A stretch of DNA of 64,000 nt from an uncultured beta proteobacterium (lineage in GTDB: Bacteria; Pseudomonadota; Gammaproteobacteria; Burkholderiales; JACQAP01): the NCBI GenBank assembly GCA_963695915.1, contig CAVOIO010000034.1, positions 15,654 through 79,653 of the forward strand, in the 5' to 3' direction. The notes below the pieces were generated by a model. The model was not told the origin of the DNA. It saw nothing but the letters and a program-made list of their open reading frames with translations, and did no database searches. Both the position numbers and the translations under genes were made by a program. The stretch's first letter is position 1, and every line of letters starts with the position of its first letter. Below, piece by piece: positions 2,454 through 64,000 of the stretch.

Positions 2454-3420
2454 CTAGAGCCACTTTGCCTTTCTGAACCGGTAGAAGAGATAGCCGTCTA
2501 TCGCCACCATTACCGCCACCGTCAGCGGGTAGCCCAGGCTCCAGTTCAGTTCCGGCATGTTGTCGAAGTTCATGCCGTAAACGCCCGCGATCATGGTGGG
2601 CACCGCGACCAGCGCGGCATACCCGGCCAAACGCTTGGTGACCTCGTTTTCCTGGATGGTCAGAAGCGACAGGTTCACCGATATCGCGGTGGTGACCATT
2701 TCCCGCAGAATGTCTATCGACTGGTTCACCCGGGCCAGGTGGTCGTAAACATCGCGGAAATACTCCTGGAGCCCCGCGCAAAGCTGCGGCACCCGGCCGC
2801 CGTAAAGTTTGCTGCTCGCCTCCAGAAGCGGCCCGGCGGCGTGCTTGAGGGTCATCAGTTTCTGCTTCAGGACGTACAGGGATTCAATGATCGCGCGGTT
2901 GTTTTGCCCGGAGAATATTCGCTTTTCGACTTCTTCGAGCTCGCCCTCAAGAGCGTCGAGCACGGGGAAGTAGCGGTCGACCACGGCGTCCATGATCGCG
3001 TAGAGCACATACGCCGAGCCGTGGCGCAGCAAGTCCGGCTCGCGTTCGCTGCGGGCGCGCACGTCGGCAAATCCCCGTTCGGTGTGGCTGCGAACCGAGA
3101 GTACGTAGTTGGGGCCGACGAATATGTCGACTTCGCCGACTTTCAGCTCGTCAGCCCGCAAGCTCCACGGTGTGAAGCACGATGAACAGCGAATCGCCGT
3201 ATTCCTCGATCTTGGGCCGCTGATGGCCGTGTCGCGCGTCCTCGACCGCAAGTTCGTGCAGTCCGAACTCTTGCTGCATCGTTTCGAGTTCTTCCAGGGT
3301 CGGCTCATACAGCGCGACCCAGACAAAACACTCCGGCCGGCGGACATACTCGTGGATCTCCTGCGGCTGAATATCGGCGAGCTTCCGCCCTTCCTCGTAT
3401 GCGACGCAGTTGACCAGCAT
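2454..3420 (-). pseudogene. corA: CorA Mg2+/Co2+ transporter, one frame change
   Basis: N-terminal part MLVNCVAYEEGRKL...FIVLHTVEL (ORF 3151-3453). C-terminal part ...VGEVDIFVGPNYVLSV...YGMNFDNMPEL... with two C-terminal TM helices (ORF 2454-3551). GMN motif present. Junction is near 3160. Confidence 0.9.
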
Positions 3421-9408: not shown

Positions 9409-12400
9409 ATGACCGATCTCAGCGTACGCACCGCCGATCAAGACAAGCAGGCGAAGAACAAGGTGCGCTTCATCACCGCCGCCAGCCTGTTCGACGGCCA
9501 CGACGCCTCGATCAACATCATGCGCCGCATCCTGCAGGCGAGCGGCGTCGAAGTCATACACCTCGGCCACAATCGTTCGGTGGACGAGATCGTCACCGCC
9601 GCGATTCAGGAAGACGTGCAGGGCATCGCCGTGTCCTCGTACCAGGGCGGACATGTGGAATACTTCAAGTACGCCATCGACCTGCTGCGCGAACGTGGCG
9701 CGAAGGACATCAAGGTGTTCGGCGGCGGCGGCGGGGTGATCGTTCCGGCCGAGATCGACGAACTGCACGGCTACGGCGTGGCGCGCATTTACTCCCCGGA
9801 GGACGGCGCGCGCATGGGTCTGCAGGGAATGATCACGGACATGATCCGCACCGCGGACCGCAACCTCTCCGCAGAGTTGCCGGCGAGCCTCGATGAAGTC
9901 TTCCGCGGCAATTTGCGCGAACTGGCGCGCGTCATCACCGGGCTCGAAAGCGCGACGCTGCCGGAGCCGCTGCGCCAGAAGCTGGCGAAGCGCGCGGCGG
10001 AACATGACAGCGTGCCGGTGCTCGGCATCACCGGGACCGGCGGCTCGGGCAAGTCGTCGCTCACCGACGAACTGATCCGCCGCTTCCGCATCGACCAGGA
10101 CGATGCGCTCAAGATCGCCGTGATTGCCGTAGATCCGTCGCGGCGCAAGACCGGCGGCGCGCTCTTGGGCGACCGCATCCGCATGAATGCGATCAACCAT
10201 CCGAACATCTACATGCGCTCGCTCGCCACCCGGGATGCGGGCAGCGAAATCGCCGCGTGCCTGCCGGACGTAATCGCCGCCTGCAAGTGCGCCGGCTTCG
10301 ACCTGATAATGGTGGAGACTTCCGGCATCGGCCAGGGAGACGCGGCCATCGTCCCGCATGTGGATTTCTCGCTGTACGTGATGACGCCGGAGTTCGGCGC
10401 CGCCAGCCAGCTCGAGAAAATCGACATGCTCGACTTTGCCGACTTCGTCGCGATCAACAAGTTCGACCGCCGCGGCGCGCAGGATGCCCTGCGCGACGTG
10501 CGCAAGCAGGTGCAGCGCAATCGCGGCGCCTTCAAGGAGGCCGCCGAGGCGATGCCGGTATTCGGCACCATTGCCTCGCGGTTCAACGACGACGGCGTGA
10601 CCGCGCTCTATCAGGCAATCGTTGCCGAACTCAGGACCCGCGGGCTCAAGGCCGGCGACGGCAAGCTCAAGCCGACCACCGTAAAGGCTTCGTCGGGGCA
10701 GAACGTTATCGTTCCGCCGGCGCGCGTGCGCTATCTGGCGGAAATTGCCGAAACCGTGCGCGGCTATCACGCCGATGTGGCGAAGCAGACCGGGATTGCG
10801 CGCGAGCGGCAGCATCTGCGGGAAGCAAAGCGGATGCTCCACCTCTCCCCGGCCCTCTCCCCCGCAAGCGGCGGAGAGGGAGTAACGGCGGCGCTGGATG
10901 TGCTCATTGCTGAGCGAGAGAAGACGCTGAGTCCCGAGGCAAGAAAACTGCTGGACGAATGGCCGCAGGTGAAGCAGTCGTATTCAGGTGACGAGCAGGT
11001 CACGAAAACCCGCGATCGCGAGATCCGAACGGTGCTGACGACGACGTCGCTGTCCGGCACCAGGGTGCCGAAGGTGGCGCTGCCTAGGTTCGAGGACGAT
11101 GGCGAAGTCCTCAAATGGCTGATGCGGGAAAACCTGCCCGGCTATTTCCCGTACACGGCGGGCGTGTTCCCGTTCAAACGCGAGAACGAAGACCCGACCC
11201 GGATGTTCGCCGGCGAAGGCGATCCGTTCCGCACCAACGCACGTTTCAAATTTCTGTCCCGGGACATGCCGGCCAAGCGTCTGTCCACCGCGTTCGACTC
11301 GGTGACGCTGTATGGATTCGATCCCCACGAGCGCCCGGACATCTACGGCAAGGTCGGCAACTCCGGCGTGTCGATCGCAACGCTGGACGACATGAAGGTG
11401 CTGTATTCCGGCTTCGACCTATGCGACCCGGCGACTTCGGTGTCGATGACCATCAACGGCCCGGCACCGACCATTCTCGCGATGTTCATCAACACGGCGA
11501 TCGACCAGCAGATCGACAAGTTCGTGGTACAGCATGGCCGTCGACCGAACGAGCAGGAAACCGCGAAGATCCGCGCCTGGACGCAGGAGAATGTGCGCGG
11601 CACCGTGCAGGCCGACATCCTCAAGGAAGACCAGGGGCAGAACACCTGCATTTTCTCCACCGAATTTTCGCTCAAGGTCATGGGTGACATCCAGGAATAC
11701 TTCGTGCGAAACAGGGTGCGCAATTTCTATTCGGTGTCGATCTCCGGCTATCACATCGCCGAGGCGGGCGCGAATCCGATCTCGCAACTTGCCTTCACGC
11801 TGTCGAATGGCTTCACCTTCGTCGAGGCCTATCTGGCCCGCGGCATGAATATCGACGACTTCGCGCCGAACCTGTCGTTCTTCTTCTCTAACGGCATGGA
11901 CCCGGAATACACGGTTCTCGGGCGCGTGGCGCGGCGCATCTGGGCCACGGCGATGAAGAACAAGTACGGCGCCAACGATCGCAGCCAGAAGCTGAAGTAC
12001 CACGTACAGACTTCCGGCCGCTCTCTGCACGCGCAGGAGATCGCGTTCAATGATATCCGCACCACACTGCAGGCGCTGATCGCGGTCTACGACAACTGCA
12101 ATTCGCTGCATACCAACGCCTACGACGAGGCGATCACGACGCCGACTGCCGAATCCGTGCGGCGGGCGCTCGCCATCCAGCTTGTCATCAACCGCGAGTG
12201 GGGCCTGGCGAGGAACGAGAATCCGAACCAGGGTTCGTTCATCATCGACGAACTGACCGATCTAGTGGAAGAAGCGGTACTGCAGGAATTCGAGCGCATC
12301 TCCGAGCGCGGTGGCGTGCTCGGCGCAATGGAAACCGGGTACCAGCGCAGCAAGATCCAGGAAGAATCGATGTACTACGAGCACAAGAAGCATGACGGCT

Positions 12401-13098: not shown

Positions 13099-13542
13099 AT
13101 GGAGTCGCGCCCGCAACTGGCGCTTTTGTGCTTGCGGCCAACGTTTATGGCTGAGCCCCGCCTCCGAATGCTCGCCATCGGTGCGCTCGCGGTCATTCAC
13201 GGCCTGGGCGCGCTCGGCGCACCCTTCGCCGCAGAACTCCATTTCGGTCAGGCTGGTGCGACCGCCCACCAGAACTTTCACGTGATTTGGGAGGCATTCA
13301 AGTACTTCGCCGCTTCGTCGGCATGCCTCGCGATTGCGCTCGGCCCGCTCCGCCGGGGCGAGCGCTGGGCGTGGTGGACCATGCTCGTCGCCTGCCTCTC
13401 GCTCTTCGGGGGCGTTTTCGTGGCGCACGCGCTGTCCGGGGGCGGGCCGGCTATCGATCACTGGTCCTACGGGACTTTCCTCGTAATTTCGATCGTTGCG
13501 CTCGCGGTGCTCGCCCGGGTTCCTCCCCGAGCGAACCGATAG
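13099..13542 (+). CDS. hypothetical small membrane protein (about 4 TM)
   Basis: The ORF has hydrophobic segments (LAIGALAVIHGLGALGA, WWTMLVACLSLFGGVFVA, FLVISIVALAVLA). I recognise no family. The start could be the internal Met at 13150. Confidence 0.4.
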   Translation: MESRPQLALLCLRPTFMAEPRLRMLAIGALAVIHGLGALGAPFAAELHFGQAGATAHQNFHVIWEAFKYFAASSACLAIALGPLRRGERWAWWTMLVACLSLFGGVFVAHALSGGGPAIDHWSYGTFLVISIVALAVLARVPPRANR

Positions 13543-13675
13543 GATTAAACCCCCGCCAGATTGCGCATTCCATTCAGCGCTATAGCGGTAGAACATTCTC
13601 ATAGTAAGCTCTGAAAAAATCGGCGCGATCCCCTGCTGATCCGTCGACGCCGTATCCACCCATGGAGGAGACCTC

Positions 13676-15646
13676 TTGGCGCAGTCCACATCCGCCTCAT
13701 CGCTGGCGGCCGACACTTTTCCGAAGCTGCTGTTGCAGCATGCCGGTGTTCGGCCCGACCGAGTGGCCATCCGAGAGAAAGACCTCGGCATCTGGCAGAG
13801 CTGGTGTTGGTCGCAAGTCGCCGACGAGGTCCGCGCGCTCGCCTGCGGCCTGGCCACCCAGGGTTTCAGGCGCGGCATGAACCTCGCCATCATCGGCGAC
13901 AACCGGCCGCGGCTTTACTGGTCGTTCGCCGCCGCCCAGTCCCTGGGCGGCGTGCCGGTACCGTTGTACCAGGATTCGGTTGCGCAGGAGATGCTGTACG
14001 TGCTCGAGAACGCCGAAATCGAGTACGCCATCGTCGAGGACCAGGAGCAGGTGGACAAGCTGCTCGAGATCCTGCCGCATTACCCGATGCTCAAGCACAT
14101 CTACTACGACGCCCCCCGCGGGCTGCGCAATTACACCCAGCCGCAACTGATGCCTTATGACCGGCTGCGGGAGCTCGGGATCGAGCATCACCGTCAGAAC
14201 CCCGATTTCTTCACGAACTCCATCAACCAGATTCGGCCCGAGGACGTGTGCGTCATTCTCTATACCTCCGGCACGACCAGCAAACCCAAGGGGGTGTGCC
14301 TCACGCATGCCGCATTCATTGCCGCGGCTCGCGGTGATGTCGGTTTTGACGGCTTCACCGAGCGCGACGAGGTGCTCTCATACCTGCCGATGGCCTGGGT
14401 CGGGGATCATCTGTTCTCCTATGCACAGTCGCTGGTCGCCGGCTTCACTGTCAATTGCCCGGAATCTTCCGAGACGGTGATGACCGACCTGCGCGAAATC
14501 GGTCCGACATATTATTTCGCGCCGCCCCGGGTATTCGAGAACCTGCTGACGACGGTGATGATCCGCATCGACGACGCTAGCCGGATCAAGCGCCGCCTGT
14601 TCCACTACTTCATGGCTGTAGCGCGCCGCTGCGGAGCGGAGATCATGGATGGCAAACGGGTTTCGCCGTTCGACCGACTGTTGTATTGGCTCGGCGATCT
14701 GTTGATCTATGGGCCTTTGCGAAACGTGCTCGGTATGAGCCGTATCCGGGTAGCCTATACTGGCGGCGCCGCAATCGGGCCCGACCTGTACCGCTTCTAT
14801 CGCTCCATCGGCATCAACCTCAAGCAGCTCTACGGTCAGACCGAGACCAGCGTCTACGTTTGCAAGCAGCCGAATGGCGCCGCCAAACTCGATTCGGTCG
14901 GCCGGCCGTTGCCAGGGGTGCAGATCAAAATCGCCGAAAACGGCGAAGTCATGGTAAGAACGCCCGGCATGCTCAAGGAGTACTACAAGCGCCCGGACGC
15001 GACCGCGGAGTCCATCTCTCCCGACGGATACTTCATGACGGGCGACGCAGGCTTCTTCGATGCCGACGGCGACCTGAAGATTATCGACCGCGCCAAGGAT
15101 GTCGGAAAACTCGCAGACGGGTCGCTGTTCGCGCCGCAGTTCATCGAGAACAAGCTCAAGTTTTTCCCCTACGTCAAGGAGGCGGTTTGTTTCGGCGACC
15201 AGCGCGAGATGGTCTGCGCCTTTGTCAACATCGACATGCAGGCGGTGGGCAATTGGGCCGAGAAGCGCCACCTGCCCTATAGCGGATACGTCGATCTCGC
15301 CAGCAAGCTCGAGGTCTACGACCTGATCCAGCAATGCGTCGAGCAGGTCAATGCCGACCTTGCCAAGGAGCCGCACCTGGCCGGCTCGCAGATCCATCGC
15401 TTCCTGGTGTTGCACAAAGAGCTCGATCCGGACGATGACGAGCTCACACGCACCCGCAAGGTGCGCCGCAGCTTTGTCGCGCAAAAGTACGACGTACTGG
15501 TGGATGCGCTCTTCGACGGCAAGGCCTCGCAGTTCATCAGCACGCAAGTCAAGTTCGAGGACGGCCGCACCGGCAAAATCGACGCCGATGTAAGAATCCG
15601 CGACGCCGCCACTTCCTCGGCCGCGGCACGACGCATCAGCGCCTGA
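13676..15646 (+). CDS. AMP-dependent synthetase/ligase (long-chain acyl-CoA synthetase-like), first gene of the ABC operon
   Basis: GGAGGAG lies 6 nt before TTG 13676. AMP-binding motif ILYTSGTTSKPKGV, then YGQTETS and TGDAGFFDADGDLKIIDRAKD. 656 aa, intact. Confidence 0.85.
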   Translation: MAQSTSASSLAADTFPKLLLQHAGVRPDRVAIREKDLGIWQSWCWSQVADEVRALACGLATQGFRRGMNLAIIGDNRPRLYWSFAAAQSLGGVPVPLYQDSVAQEMLYVLENAEIEYAIVEDQEQVDKLLEILPHYPMLKHIYYDAPRGLRNYTQPQLMPYDRLRELGIEHHRQNPDFFTNSINQIRPEDVCVILYTSGTTSKPKGVCLTHAAFIAAARGDVGFDGFTERDEVLSYLPMAWVGDHLFSYAQSLVAGFTVNCPESSETVMTDLREIGPTYYFAPPRVFENLLTTVMIRIDDASRIKRRLFHYFMAVARRCGAEIMDGKRVSPFDRLLYWLGDLLIYGPLRNVLGMSRIRVAYTGGAAIGPDLYRFYRSIGINLKQLYGQTETSVYVCKQPNGAAKLDSVGRPLPGVQIKIAENGEVMVRTPGMLKEYYKRPDATAESISPDGYFMTGDAGFFDADGDLKIIDRAKDVGKLADGSLFAPQFIENKLKFFPYVKEAVCFGDQREMVCAFVNIDMQAVGNWAEKRHLPYSGYVDLASKLEVYDLIQQCVEQVNADLAKEPHLAGSQIHRFLVLHKELDPDDDELTRTRKVRRSFVAQKYDVLVDALFDGKASQFISTQVKFEDGRTGKIDADVRIRDAATSSAAARRISA

Positions 15647-20254: not shown

Positions 20255-21078
20255 ATGTCAGTACAAGCTCCAGCCGCCCTCCTGACCGTAAATAATATCG
20301 AGGTAATCTACGACCACGTGATCCTGGTGTTGAAGGGCGTCTCGCTCAAGGTGCCGGACGGCACGATCGTGGCCCTGCTCGGCGCCAATGGTGCGGGCAA
20401 GTCCACCACGCTCAAGGCGATCTCCAATCTGTTGCGCGCCGAGCGCGGCGAGGTCACCAAGGGCTCGGTCGGAATTCGACGGCGAGCGAATCGATCAGCT
20501 CAATCCCTCCGACGTGGTCAAGCGCGGAGTCGTGCAGGTGATGGAAGGCCGCCATTGCTTCGCCCATCTCACCGTGGAGGAGAACCTTCTCACCGGCGCG
20601 TTCACCCGCAACGTGGGTCGCACCGAGATCGCCGCAGACCTTGACAAGGTCTACGACCTATTTCCCGCGTCTGAAGCAGCGCCGCAGCAGCCAGGCCGGC
20701 TACACCTCGGGCGGTGAACAGCAGATGACGGCGGTAGGCCGCGCGCTGATGGCACGACCGAGGCATGATTCTTCTCGATGAACCCTCGATGGGACTCGGC
20801 GCCACAGATCGTCGAGGAAATCTTCGAAATCGTGCGCGGGCTGAACGAGAAGGAGAAACGTGAGCTTCCTGCTGGCCGAACAGAACACCAATGTCGCGTT
20901 GCGTCACGCCGATTACGGCTACATCCTTGAGAACGGCCGCGTCGTGATGGACGGCCCGGCGGCCGATCTCGCAAATAACGAAGACGTAAAGGAGTTCTAC
21001 CTCGGGCTTTCGACCTCCGGGCGCAAGAGCTTCCGCGATTCGAAGCATTACCGCCGCCGCAAGCGCTGGCTGGCTTGA
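20255..21078 (+). pseudogene. ABC transporter ATP-binding protein (LivF-like), frame broken about 5 times
   Basis: Walker [29 protein letters not shown] and [16 protein letters not shown] appear only after frame changes near 20468, 20660, 20763, 20795 and 20858. C-terminal part is VSFLLAEQNTNVAL... Confidence 0.85.
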
Positions 21079-21082
21079 CGGC

Positions 21083-21180
21083 GGTGAGGGGTGAGGAGCG
21101 AGGGACGAGGGTAAGAGTAAAGGCGCATACAGCCTACGTCTGTCTATTTCCTCGACCCTCGCCCCTCGTCCCTCGCCCCC
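21083..21180. repeat. tandem-heptamer inverted-repeat element (G[TC]GAGGG type)
   Basis: Left arm 21083-21111 ggtgaggggtgaggagcgagggacgaggg begins 4 nt after the stop. Right arm 21150-21180 cctcgaccctcgcccctcgtccctcgccccc ends 5 nt before ATG 21186. Confidence 0.8.
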
Positions 21181-60901: not shown

Positions 60902-62240
60902 ATGTGGGGGAGACCCCTCTCCACCGTCGTCCTGATCGGCATTCTGGCGCTGGTCTGCTGGCCGATTCTCGGCAGCGAGGGCGCCTTGCTGGTCCTCGCC
61001 GCGCTCCTTCTGGCTGTGCTTTTCCATCACCTTCTGAATCTCTCGGCGCTCTACCGCTGGCTCCAGAACCCGCGACTCGGAGAACGTTCCAGTGGGCAGC
61101 GGGGCCTGGGAGTATGTGTTCTCGCACCTGCTCAGGATGCTCAAGCAACACGAGCAAAGCGAAGTACGGCTGGGCGAGGCGCTGTCGCGCTTTCAACTCG
61201 CGGGCGCGGCGCTTCCGGACGCGGTGGTGATCCTGGGCGAGGGTGACCGAATCGAATGGTGCAACCCCAAGGCGGAGGACTACTTCGGTCTCGACAACGA
61301 AAGCGACCGCGGCCAGCAGATTACCTACATCCTGCGCCAACCACAGTTCGTCGAACACCTGTCGTCCGCCCATGTCGGTGAGTCGCTGGTGCTGCGGGTT
61401 TCGCGCGAGCTGGACGAGATCGTGCTGTCGGTGCAACTGGTTCCCTACGGCGACCGGCACAAACTCATTCTCGGACGCGACATCACCCGCTGGGAACGGC
61501 TGGAAACGACCCGGCGCGATTTCGTCGCCAACGTTTCGCACGAGTTGCGCACGCCGCTCACCGTGGTCGGCGGATTTCTCGAGACCTTGAGCGACATGAA
61601 AAAGCCGGACCCGGAAATGACGCGGCGCTCGATCATGCTCATGGCGCAGCAAACCAGCCGCATGACGCGGCTGGTGGATGACCTGCTGACATTGTCGCGA
61701 CTGGAGAGCGCGCACAATCCGGTACGCGAAGAGGACGTCAACGTCCCGGACCTCGTCAAGGCGCTGCACCAGGATGCGGTGGCGCTTTCCGCCGGCCGGC
61801 ACAAGCTGCGCGTCGGGCTCGAATCGAATGACTGGCTGAGGGGAAACACCGAGGAACTGCGCAGCGCCTTCGGCAACCTGATCAGCAATGCGGTGCGCTA
61901 TACGCCGGAAAGCGGTGAGGTGGAAATACGCTGGGAAAGGCGCGACGGCGATTCCGTGTTCGCCGTGCGGGACACCGGCATCGGCATCGAGCCGCAGCAC
62001 ATCGACCGCCTGACCGAGCGTTTCTACCGGGTGGATCGCAGCCGCTCGCGCGAAACCGGCGGCACCGGGCTGGGACTGGCAATCGTCAAGCACGTGCTCA
62101 ATCGCCACCAGGCGCGTCTCGAGGTCCAGAGCAGCCTGGGAAGCGGCAGCACCTTCTCGGTAATTTTTCCGGAAACCCGGCGCCTGCCCGCCAAAGGGCC
62201 GGCGGCGGCTTTGGTCCAGGAACCCGCGATTTCCCGTTAG
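60902..62240 (+). pseudogene. phoR: phosphate-regulon sensor histidine kinase PhoR, one frame change
   Basis: Two N-terminal TM helices, a PAS domain, H-box FVANVSHELRTPLT, N-box and G-boxes (DTGIGI, GGTGLGLAIV). Frame change near 61090. Confidence 0.9.
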
Positions 62241-62725
62241 GGTTTTCTCTCCAGCAACCCGGACAATTGCTGTTGCATCGAGCGGACGAATCCCGCCGGC
62301 AGCGGACGGGCGCCGTCCCGTTGCCTGGCTCCGAACACCGGGTTGGGAAAATGCGGATCGTCGGCAAAGCGCGGAATGATGTGCCAATGCAGGTGCGGCA
62401 CCATGTTGCCGAAGCTGGCCAGGTTGATCTTCTCCGGTGCGAGGAGTTCGCGCAGCACGCGTTCGACGACGAACACGGTATTCATCAACCGCGCACGCTC
62501 GGCTTCGGTGAGATCGGTCATCTCTTTCGTGTGGGCATTCAGGATCACCCGGCAATAGGCGGGATGATCGGCATCGCCGATCAGCACCACTCGGGCGAAG
62601 CCGTCGTTCCAGAGCACTTCGCCCCCGGCTTGCGCGCACAGCGCGCAAGCAGTGACGGGTGACGAGTGACCGGTAACTGGAGAAACCTTTCCCGTACTGA
62701 TTCTGGTCTTGGATCGGCTAGTCAC
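62237..62725 (-). CDS. HIT (histidine triad) family hydrolase; start uncertain
   Basis: ..NMVPHLHWHIIPR.. (HxHxHxx motif) and CALCAQ..EVLWNDGFARVV. As listed, the first 25 or so codons (GTG 62725) are encoded by the adjacent repeat element. Confidence 0.8.
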   Translation of the reverse strand: MTSRSKTRISTGKVSPVTGHSSPVTACALCAQAGGEVLWNDGFARVVLIGDADHPAYCRVILNAHTKEMTDLTEAERARLMNTVFVVERVLRELLAPEKINLASFGNMVPHLHWHIIPRFADDPHFPNPVFGARQRDGARPLPAGFVRSMQQQLSGLLERKP

Positions 62726-62740
62726 AAGTCACCGCTCACT
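62652..62740. repeat. tandem-heptamer inverted-repeat element (GTGACGG type) at the intI truncation point
   Basis: Left arm 62652-62677 gtgacgggtgacgagtgaccggtaac. Right arm 62721-62740 gtcacaagtcaccgctcact. The spacer is 43 nt. Confidence 0.7.
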
Positions 62741-62914
62741 ATTCGCCAGCGCCGAGGGGGGGTGGCGCTAATCGTGGACCAGCACAAACCGCGGTACCCA
62801 ATCGACATAAGACTGCTCGGTGCGGATACTATTGTGCTTGACGCGCAGCCGACCGCGGATCTGGTCCAGGAGCTTCGGTTCACTGGGCGGGACCGGGTCG
62901 GGATCAGGGCGCAT
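62735..62914 (-). pseudogene. intI: integron integrase IntI, N-terminal ~60-codon remnant with premature TAG
   Basis: MRPDPDPVPPSEPKLLDQIRGRLRVKHNSIRTEQSYVDWVPRFVLVHD*RHPPSALANSE aligns with the IntI1 N-terminus (..[47 protein letters not shown]). Everything downstream is missing. Confidence 0.7.
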
Positions 62915-62980
62915 GGCACAGTCTCCGGTAATCGCAAAATGAGCAGGATCATGAGCTTGAGCACGGTACTGTATATTTAT

Positions 62981-63034
62981 ACACCTTCCAGGTGTCTTTA
63001 CAAGCACCTCGAAGGTGTCTACTTCTAGTTAGGG
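62981..63034 (+). other. attI-like site: two tandem ~20-bp repeats each containing an inverted repeat, then GTTAGGG
   Basis: ACACCTtccAGGTGTCTttac and gCACCTcgaAGGTGTCTactt (direct repeat AGGTGTCT at 62990 and 63013), followed by the crossover-type GTTAGGG at 63028-63034, 16 nt before the first cassette ORF. Confidence 0.5.
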
Positions 63035-63050
63035 CTCGAAGGAACCGCCG

Positions 63051-63461
63051 ATGGTCGATCCGGATATCGAGAAGTTCGTTGAGATGATTGATGCAAAGGA
63101 GCCCCTCGCAGACGATGAGCACTACGTCACTTTCCGAAGGATGTTCAAGCGTCATAACTATTTTCTGTTGAAGGGACGCTTTCTCATCGTGAAGATCAGC
63201 CGCAGCGATAGGCCTTTCTGGGGTCTAGGGAAGGATTTCGTCGACTTCCTGAATGAGCTGAACAACTACTATTTGGTGCTGCTTACCTCGCCGCGCGAAG
63301 GTTGGGTCTTTCCGAAGGCTGATGTGAACGCGAACATTCGGTCGCATAAGTGGAAGCTTCGCGAGGCTGATAACAACTACAAGATCAATCCCCCGCTCCC
63401 TGATCGAGGGGCGTTCTCGGGCGCAAGTCGGTTCTATGAAAAGCTCGGAATCGAGCCCTAA
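63051..63461 (+). CDS. integron cassette ORF 1, hypothetical protein (136 aa)
   Basis: GAAGGA lies 7 nt before the ATG. The stop TAA lies inside the attC R'' box. MVDPDIEKFVEMIDAKEPLADDEHYVTF...LIVKISRSDRPFWGLGKDFVDFL..YYLVLLTSPREGWVFPKADV.. I recognise no family. Confidence 0.6.
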   Translation: MVDPDIEKFVEMIDAKEPLADDEHYVTFRRMFKRHNYFLLKGRFLIVKISRSDRPFWGLGKDFVDFLNELNNYYLVLLTSPREGWVFPKADVNANIRSHKWKLREADNNYKINPPLPDRGAFSGASRFYEKLGIEP

Positions 63462-63536
63462 CCCCCGCATCGACACGGACCCTTCACAGCAGCGCTCCGC
63501 GCTGCTGTTGCGGGCCGGTCATGCGGATCGTTAGAG
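63456..63536 (+). repeat. attC site of cassette 1 (81 bp)
   Basis: R'' ccctaac ... R' gttagag (6/7 complementary). Inner arms ccgcatcgacacggaccc / gggccggtcatgcgg pair with bulges. The central stem is perfect: cagcagcgc tcc gcgctgctg. Confidence 0.65.
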
Positions 63537-63548
63537 CGCACCCGCACC

Positions 63549-63953
63549 ATGATGAGGATTACGAGTCCCGCCGCAAATGTGATCCGTGAATGGTTGCGGT
63601 GCTCGGCAATAGCTCATCCGGCCGTTCGCCTGATTCAAACGTCGAACGCTCCGCCTGAGATTCGGCAAGCCCTCGACCGCGGAGCCCACCGAAAGGAGAT
63701 TGAAGAGATTGCGGTGAGGGAGCTTGCGAAGCAACCGAAATACCTCTATCCAGGTATTTATCCGCGCTCCCACTTCCTGTGGATCTTCACCGCGACTATC
63801 GACGGCTTTCGGTTTGCGTCTCCTTTCTTTCATCCACCATACGCACGCCGCGCGATGAGAAGAGGCGTCCTTGATGTGGCCGAACGAGGTTTGGTTCTTA
63901 AGGATGCTGATGGAACGGTTGTACTCCCCAAGCAGAGAACCGGTGCGCTCTAA
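63549..63953 (+). CDS. integron cassette ORF 2, hypothetical protein (134 aa)
   Basis: Begins 13 nt after the attC1 GTT. The stop TAA lies inside ctctaac. I recognise no family (..LYPGIYPRSHFLWIFTATIDGFRFASPFFHPPYARRAM..). Confidence 0.5.
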   Translation: MMRITSPAANVIREWLRCSAIAHPAVRLIQTSNAPPEIRQALDRGAHRKEIEEIAVRELAKQPKYLYPGIYPRSHFLWIFTATIDGFRFASPFFHPPYARRAMRRGVLDVAERGLVLKDADGTVVLPKQRTGAL

Positions 63954-64000
63954 CTTTTCGCTGCAGTCGACGCCTATCGGCGCGGCTGAGCTAGTTCGTT
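63948..64000 (+). repeat. attC site of cassette 2 (partial, cut by window end)
   Basis: R'' ctctaac, then gctgcagtcgacgcc tatc ggcgcggctgagc as an imperfect palindrome. R' cannot be assigned before the sequence ends. Confidence 0.4.

Follow-up and report, generated by a model that had tools for sequence, protein, structure and literature searches.

Evidence for a sedentary chromosomal integron with a destroyed integrase gene at the phoR-HIT locus of an uncultured Burkholderiales lineage

Loss of integrase function is predicted for 43-46% of intI homologues, above all for those of soil and freshwater lineages (PMC3108266), and the ilvD-linked integron of Xanthomonas shows repeated, lineage-specific inactivation of its integrase gene (PMC12444791). 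Clusters of attC sites lacking an integron integrase (CALINs) are also well documented, and intI pseudogenes were found near only 15 of 279 of them in a search made with a C-terminal profile (PMC4889954). In class 1 integrons, the cassette promoter Pc lies inside intI1, where its variants alter amino acids 31, 32, 38 and 39, and the -35 hexamer of PcPUO is TCGACA (PMC2791841). Gene-less cassettes with promoter activity are known as well (PMC11014356). Here we describe the right-hand end of a 64-kb stretch of DNA (contig CAVOIO010000034.1, positions 15,654 to 79,653, hereafter 'the window', with coordinates counted from its first base) from an uncultured soil bacterium of the Burkholderiales. 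We are highly confident that positions 62735-64000 are the platform end of a sedentary chromosomal integron whose integrase gene has been destroyed. Its attI site, a Pc-like site, its cassettes and their attC sites are structurally intact. Coordinates of the features are collected in Table 1.

The integrase gene survives as a stump. Read on the minus strand from the ATG at 62914, the frame gives MRPDPDPVPPSEPKLLDQIRGRLRVKHNSIRTEQSYVDWVPRFVLVHD, a TAG codon, RHPPSALANSER and a second stop at about 62735. Homology to IntI ends after the RHP motif, at about codon 52, and some 280 codons, including all catalytic residues, are missing up to the neighbouring HIT-family gene. Further non-conservative changes affect positions that are conserved in relatives (HYS to HNS and WVRRF to WVPRF). 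The 61-residue fragment matches the Pfam domain PF13495 (E 6.7e-7) and, in a search of NCBIfam, NF011946 (E 1.8e-11, aligned residue by residue over positions 6-60) and TIGR02249 (E 1.2e-7), both of them integron-integrase models, whereas no XerC/D model matched it at E<=1. With about 52 residues left, these scores lie far under the full-length cut-offs of the families. With the N-terminus of the intact IntI of a related locus (L015, see below) the stump has 65% identity, and it aligns with what we take to be the N-terminus of IntI1. The original prediction, made from the letters of the window, had read an IntI-type N-terminus on the minus strand, with a premature TAG and a cut-off after about 60 codons, and had proposed a comparison of IntI and XerC/D profiles. 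These readings hold, the nonsense codon being codon 49, and the profile comparison points to an integron integrase, as do the syntenic full-length genes described below. The catalytic tyrosine-recombinase domain with its IntI-specific insertion is absent, and the stump is a pseudogene remnant, not a functional member of the family. Since the catalytic residues are deleted, the local integrase is unable to move cassettes. No other IntI-like sequence was found within the 64-kb window.

We used PhoR, encoded next to the HIT gene, as a probe for the same chromosomal location in other species, and obtained 80 loci from species-representative genomes (designated by L numbers in what follows). The closest, with 88-92% PhoR identity, belong to metagenome-assembled genomes (MAGs) of uncultured Burkholderiales or Betaproteobacteria. 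The phoR-HIT synteny is present at more than 50 loci, and intI or a remnant of it lies beside phoR-HIT in the window and in L001, L004, L005, L008, L009, L010, L011, L015 and L019. A full-length intI sits between HIT and attI in L008 (348 aa) and L019 (331 aa), and L015 has an open frame of 309 aa there; their TIGR02249 scores (481, 499 and 422 bits, respectively) stand against a cut-off of 265. As these syntenic genes are bona fide IntI, the stump is orthologous to intI. At the same place, L002 has an IntI C-terminal match, at a contig end. The synteny kept in several MAGs also bears out the word 'chromosomal' in the original prediction.

The other relatives document decay. L005, L009 and L011 also have stumps, and the endpoints differ, from about codon 25 in L004 to about 50 in several loci and about 56 in L001. 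The ten database proteins nearest to the stump (P0002-P0010 among them) are all 48-102 aa long, again with different ends, and in P0002 an IntI N-terminus is joined straight to the final 20 residues of IntI. In L010, the intI homology is split, with a 132-aa open reading frame (ORF) over its 3' end. The HIT-stump junction of the window was seen again in two other assemblies, the contig L081 and a 961-bp Logan contig with matching gene order. Varied stump endpoints, together with full-length intI in relatives, argue for decay that was recurrent or progressive; on these comparisons, the locus is an old chromosomal integron with an integrase that was lost repeatedly or eroded progressively.

Some details of these loci were observed in passing. 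The 132-aa ORF of L010 (11678-12076, minus strand) begins with MRFYYVYVLMSGKDGNWYTGYT and is GIY-YIG-like by eye. In the same locus, the place behind attI at which cassettes were to be expected is taken by a 356-aa ORF (13166-14236, minus strand) that resembles a transposase by eye; our attC covariance model, described below, found no attC site in L010. At the stump/HIT junction, tandem repeats of GTGAY type, 7-8 nt long, occur in the window at 62652-62674 and 62720-62742, in L001 at 2951-2981 and 3032-3071 (two arrays in inverted orientation) and in L004 at about 11700-11725. They could be substrates of slippage or microhomology for recurrent 3' deletions of intI, or could belong to the upstream or N-terminal region of HIT.

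Next to the start of intI, two AGGTGTCT repeats and a GTTAGGG had been proposed to form an attI-like site. All three elements are found there, AGGTGTCT occurring at 62990-62997 and 63013-63020, once inside each of two 16-nt direct repeats, and the junction pattern agrees with this proposal. Nine loci were aligned over the stretch that leads from the start of intI into the array. The window, L001 and L009 are alike through ...ACTTCTAGTTAG (GTT plus about three bases) and then continue into unrelated DNA. L008, L010 and L011 have another sequence in common, through ...CTTCTAGTT, beyond which they part. In both attI types, which are independent of each other, similarity thus ends a few bases beyond the GTT of GTTRRRY, which identifies the attI recombination junction. 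By reading, the direct repeats have palindromic cores, ACACCT-N3-AGGTGT and GCACCT-N3-AGGTGT, the first of which was also listed by a repeat search. The AGGTGT repeats are kept in L001 and L009, and in L008, L010 and L011 CGTCAA repeats (once palindromic) occupy the same alignment position. Such a swap of motif at a fixed position would fit integrase-specific accessory binding sites, and the repeated palindromes at 62982-63020 are candidates for binding by the cognate IntI. Close relatives were also seen to have either of the two intI/attI types at one and the same phoR-HIT locus, with stump identities of 54% versus 83%; this suggests that integrase and accessory sites co-vary or that the platform was replaced.

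Between the intI start and attI lies a LexA-box-like sequence. LexA boxes, with the consensus CTGTatatatatACAG, CTGT-N8-ACAG, are located at intI promoters, which places intI under SOS control (PMC3108266). Nine LexA-like matches were found in the window for 14.5 expected, and the one at 62969-62984 is the sole match with an AT-rich spacer; as a lead only, it may be what is left of an SOS-controlled intI promoter. Similar LexA-like boxes, for example CTGTTCATATATCCAG, were seen by eye in the platform type of L008, L010 and L011.

The first cassette boundary is the clearest attC site of the window. An attC site ending in GTTAGAG had been predicted at 63456-63536 and is present as described; a rule-based scan for R boxes and folds over both strands of the 64 kb gave seven candidates, of which it came first. 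For the bottom strand, a folding energy of -32.2 kcal/mol was obtained (z -5.2; none of 200 shuffles did as well), and the layout is canonical: the R boxes pair, a short spacer stays unpaired, and all of the bulges, three of a single base each, are on the 3' ('') arm. The second site, attC2, is cut by the window end. It has the same layout but a weak fold (z -1.2), so the bottom-strand folding check that accompanied the original prediction holds for attC1, bulges included, and fails by energy for attC2.

The same type of scan found co-oriented attC sites downstream of attI in L001, L005 and L009. Nine such sites and one from L081, aligned with the window's own sites excluded, gave a consensus of 19 pairs, 11 of which covary through compensatory changes, with the bulges on one arm. 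The covariance model R1, built for this analysis from the nine sites of relatives, is distinct from the IntegronFinder model. In the 64 kb, it scores attC1 at 47.8 bits (E 3e-9) and 63948-64000 at 31.4 bits (E 2.4e-5, flagged as 3'-truncated), so that both predicted sites pass the kind of covariance test that had been suggested for them, albeit with our own model in place of IntegronFinder or HattCI. The complete attC2 in L081 reaches 41.9 bits. A third match in the window (9.9 bits, E 3.1, the reporting threshold being E<=10) was taken as noise. The two convincing matches are co-oriented, each overlaps the stop codon of an ORF, and AAC/GTT is exact in both core pairs. No terminator-like T-runs are present. 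The evidence for attC2 is the covariance model and the cassette junction, not folding energy: four copies of a repeated cassette all start with G↓TTGGG (arrow, recombination point) behind four different attC sites, attC2 included, and these identical starts independently confirm attC2 as a junction.

Two plus-strand ORFs with stops inside (C/T)CTAAC boxes had been noticed, and they are confirmed at 63051-63461 and 63549-63953. The TAA of ORF1 lies inside CCCTAAC (63456-63462) and that of ORF2 inside CTCTAAC (63948-63954). The window has two complete cassettes, with one gene in each. ORF1 has 104 homologues with 35-79% identity and a length of about 137 aa; none carries an annotation, and most come from short contigs. 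One of them, P0013, lies on a 67-kb contig, where an attC-like site follows it and overlaps the stop codon. No Pfam family was found for ORF1. Its AlphaFold model (pLDDT 92) bears a weak likeness to PD-(D/E)XK/Hjc nucleases (Foldseek E 0.016, TM 0.43-0.49), and the family has no invariant acidic residue. ORF2 has 77 homologues in 41 representative clusters, without annotation. Its AlphaFold model (pLDDT 89) gave no convincing fold match in the PDB, no sequence match was convincing either, and a protein look-up returned no record for ORF2 as read. Both are real genes of conserved families to which no function has been assigned. The cassettes have a GC content of 0.49-0.56 against 0.62-0.66 in the flank, and this drop points to a foreign origin of the cassettes.

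Does the array continue beyond the window? Exact 52-mer scans of genome and metagenome contigs gave no extending contig, and look-ups of ORF1 and of the 48-aa stump product gave just the 961-bp Logan contig. A frameshift variant of the stump, P0010, led us to L081, an ENA contig whose reverse complement is 99.4% identical to window positions 62601-64000 and then runs for a further 2,305 bp. Five more co-oriented attC sites lie past position 64000 in L081, as expected from the original prediction, which had held that more cassettes were likely downstream. None of the three refuting conditions set out with that prediction came true, and it is supported wherever a test could be made. This contig has 7 attC sites in total and at least seven cassettes. 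Cassette 4 contains a 235-aa ORF; cassettes 3, 5, 6 and 7 are copies of one 363-bp cassette without an ORF, 89-94% identical to one another, and cassette 3 begins with the two bases that close the window (63999-64000). Arrays are present at the same locus in L001, L005 and L009 as well.

Table 1. Features of the decayed integron and of its immediate surroundings (window coordinates unless another locus is named)
Feature	Position	Strand	Remarks
HIT-family gene	62237-62725	-	PF01230, E 8e-15; abuts the stump and marks the far end of the deletion; outside the integron
intI remnant	62735-62914	-	Codons 1-48, nonsense TAG, 11 more codons (RHPPSALANSER)
Premature TAG, intI codon 49	62768-62770	-	AAG (Lys) in relatives; TAG also in the independently assembled L081
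Pc-like site TCGACA-17-GATACT	62802-62830	+	Putative promoter facing the cassettes; on stump codons 29-30 and 37-38
LexA-box-like sequence CTGTATATTTATACAC	62969-62984		7/8 consensus bases, AT-rich spacer; between intI start and attI
Direct repeats, 2 x 16 nt	62982-63020	+	CACCTTCCAGGTGTCT, CACCTCGAAGGTGTCT; 23 bp apart; presumed accessory integrase-binding sites of attI
attI core GTTAGGG	63028-63034	+	114 bp from the intI start codon; probable recombination point between G63028 and T63029
Cassette 1, 502 bp	63029-63530	+	ORF1 63051-63461 (136 aa), AGGA 7 nt upstream of ATG; GC 0.49-0.53
attC1, 81 nt	63456-63536	+	R'' CCCTAAC ... R' GTTAGAG
Cassette 2, 468 bp	63531-63998	+	ORF2 63549-63953 (134 aa)
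attC2, cut by window end	63948-64000	+	Complete site 57 nt, CTCTAAC...GTTGGGC, window-equivalent 63948-64004
ORF-less cassette copies	L081 1946-2307, 731-1099, 368-730, 7-367	-	Also L001 5193-5556

How should such a locus be classified? By the published categories of IntegronFinder, it would be a CALIN with an intI remnant and attI attached; having lost the integrase-specific C-terminal domain, it would not count as an integron. A complete integron is defined there by PF00589, the IntI C-terminal profile and one or more attC sites; here PF13495 is the sole match and the catalytic domain is deleted. Two attC sites in the window, seven in L081 and the lack of a functional intI within the 64 kb make it a CALIN in that scheme. 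The locus descends from a sedentary chromosomal integron and, in functional terms, acts as one. Across relatives, intI or its remnant keeps a fixed location beside phoR-HIT. With regard to the long arrays and homogeneous attC sites considered typical of such integrons, seven attC sites are known in an array whose end was not reached, and they are 57-100 nt long and heterogeneous except for those of the repeated cassette. The decay is of a well-known kind, and the locus is a real but ordinary example that leaves the current picture of integrons unchallenged.

The Pc-like site is the sole sigma-70-like site in 62600-64000, where 0.4 would be expected. The codons that carry it presumably correspond to residues 30-31 and 38-39 of IntI1, judging from an alignment to the IntI1 sequence as we take it to be. 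The site thus appears to hold a position homologous to that of the class 1 Pc, and we infer that it serves as the cassette promoter. Its hexamers are kept in the intact and in most of the truncated relatives, and are absent from L004.

Could the stump have been retained by selection, as the carrier of the cassette promoter and attI? The decayed platform would in that case have been domesticated as a unit that expresses the first cassettes constitutively. The element stands exactly at the class 1 Pc position, its -35 hexamer is kept in five of five truncated copies (window, L001, L005, L009 and L011), with a usable -10 in four, and the deletions always take the 3' side of intI and leave its 5' end and attI. 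However, the hexamers are equally present in intact genes, where they fall in conserved codons, so that their persistence carries no independent signal, and deletions that begin at the short GTGAY repeats beside HIT also account for erosion from one side. As a general rule, retention for the sake of Pc is weakened by L004, whose shorter stump, ending at about codon 25, is without this element. We regard selection on the stump as a tentative and rather unlikely explanation.

Several points weigh against our main reading, that of a decayed integron, and should be set beside the evidence for it. The outermost bases of attC1 depart from RYYYAAC/GTTRRRY (CCCTAAC and GTTAGAG), and attC2 alone folds no better than shuffles. 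The attC model is our own, with nine training sites that were themselves picked by the rule-based scan. The Pc-like hexamers, lying in conserved codons and lost from L004, bring no independent evidence by their conservation, and 7/8 matches to the LexA consensus are not enriched in the window. Finally, close relatives with truncated intI carry different first cassettes, so that cassette turnover may have continued after truncation or may have preceded it.

The relatives suggest the following history. In the ancestor, a full-length intI would have lain between HIT and attI and been transcribed away from the cassettes, its promoter overlapped by a LexA-type box. The ancestral IntI would have inserted circular cassettes at the G↓TT of the attI GTTAGGG, and these would have been read from a promoter within the 5' end of intI, at the position of the class 1 Pc. 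Today, intI is down to about 52 homologous codons, with the TAG at codon 49 and the non-conservative changes, and its remainder has been deleted up to HIT. The local enzyme can no longer excise, insert or shuffle cassettes. Barring the action in trans of another integron integrase, the array would stay fixed as an operon-like block.

Is the array really frozen? An alternative is that it behaves as a CALIN serviced in trans by an integron integrase encoded elsewhere in the genome or on mobile integrons, in which case cassette exchange would go on between attC sites, and possibly at attI. The attC1, attC2 and downstream sites indeed keep a canonical structure. The window, L001 and L009 combine the same attI type and a truncated intI with different first cassettes, and the ORF-less cassette is found again in L001 and in numerous metagenome arrays. 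Half of CALINs, moreover, lie in genomes that have IntI elsewhere (PMC4889954). On the other hand, the window holds no second IntI-like sequence, and the arrays of the window and L081 are identical across their overlap. The copies of the repeated cassette have diverged to 89-94%, which argues against recent duplication, and the cassette differences between lineages may predate the truncations. The answer would depend on the rest of the genome, the search for a second intI having covered the 64-kb window. We consider continued exchange possible but on the unlikely side, and infer that the array is frozen.

That the locus is not an integron, but a piece of some generic tyrosine recombinase, XerC/D or a phage integrase, beside palindromic repeats or terminators, is highly improbable. 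In favour of this, only 52 homologous residues remain, with scores far under full-length cut-offs, and the N-terminal SAM-like domain PF13495 is common to other recombinases. Against it, XerC/D models went unmatched at E<=1 where two integron-integrase models matched, the full-length genes in synteny are IntI beyond doubt, the palindromes combine R boxes with bulges on one side, attC-type covariation and overlap with ORF stops, the junctions at G↓TT are of cassette type, and terminator-like T-runs are absent.

The cassette without an ORF deserves attention of its own, as it was found on at least 30 soil and sediment metagenome contigs (72-96% identity, 18-mer scan followed by BLAST filtering). 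Tandem copies are frequent, as is a place at the head of the array, right behind attI, which it occupies in L139 and L101 beside a full-length intI. A long-range inverted repeat, CCGTTTGCGTCACG / CGTGACGCAAGCCG, is conserved in it, of which only CCGTTTGCGTCACG is unbiased, CGTGACGCAAGCCG having been the search pattern. A small protein was rejected, since the variation shows no three-base periodicity in any frame. A structured RNA was rejected as well: the RNAalifold value of -119.5 for 37 copies lies within the column-shuffled range of -107 to -119, and covariation counts were no better than those of shuffles. By eye, no convincing sigma-70 promoter was seen on either strand. Searches of Rfam gave no family in the window at gathering thresholds and none in L081 at E<=1, and a tRNA gene search found none. 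It is somewhat doubtful that this cassette represents a previously undescribed functional non-coding family, such as a promoter, protein-binding or RNA element that modulates expression of the array.

On the chromosomal side, phoR (61092-62240) lies tail to tail with the HIT gene and is preceded by phoB. In L006, whose PhoR is 89% identical, the two genes are not adjacent: the HIT match is at 20854-21141 and phoR at 10001-11146, about 10 kb apart, which implies an insertion or rearrangement between them. The ABC-ATPase gene of L010, used as a probe for the right-hand chromosomal flank of the array, was uninformative.

Our results add one more documented case to the soil and freshwater chromosomal integrons, which often lose their integrase and keep their cassettes. 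After Xanthomonas, the phoR-HIT locus is a second clade-wide example of one location with intact, interrupted and variously truncated intI, and its members form a natural series for the study of how and why integrases are lost. It also points to two conserved families of cassette proteins and to an abundant ORF-less cassette, none of which has been assigned a function.

With CALINs as defined by Cury et al. (2016, PMC4889954), the locus shares at least two co-oriented attC sites and the lack of any nearby gene with an IntI-specific domain. It differs from them in that a recognisable intI remnant and an attI site are still present. Because pseudogenes were sought near CALINs with a C-terminal profile, an N-terminal stump of this type would probably be missed. 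Some 'orphan' CALINs may thus have decayed in situ and not been displaced.

Class 1 integrons (Jove et al. 2010, PMC2791841) resemble the locus in the divergent arrangement of intI and cassettes, in the GTTRRRY core at the first junction, in the two repeated motifs upstream of that core, and in the promoter-like element at the Pc position, with the -35 hexamer of PcPUO. Unlike them, the present integron is chromosomal and sedentary, has no Tn402, 3'-conserved segment or resistance cassettes, and its integrase is dead.

The gene-less promoter cassettes known from superintegrons of Vibrio and from oral metagenomes (Blanco et al. 2024, PMC11014356; PMC6557892) are, like the 363-bp cassette, without a conserved ORF or codon periodicity, bounded by cassette junctions and recurrent within arrays. 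The 363-bp cassette nevertheless belongs to an unrelated sequence family from soil and sediment, is often in tandem and often first after attI, and a sigma-70 promoter is not evident in it.

The chromosomal integron of Xanthomonas, on which Gillings and colleagues reportedly did earlier work, offers a close parallel. As in the ilvD-linked integron described by Colombi et al. (2025, PMC12444791), a fixed chromosomal position, here phoR-HIT, is kept across a clade, some members have an intact intI and others have inactivated it independently, arrays vary by lineage, and the cassettes mostly encode proteins without known function. The host here is of another order, represented by uncultured Burkholderiales MAGs, and the anchor gene is another. 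Inactivation at the phoR-HIT locus is mainly by large 3' deletions that leave a stump of 25-100 codons, and, unlike the Xanthomonas integron, this one locus holds two distinct intI/attI types.

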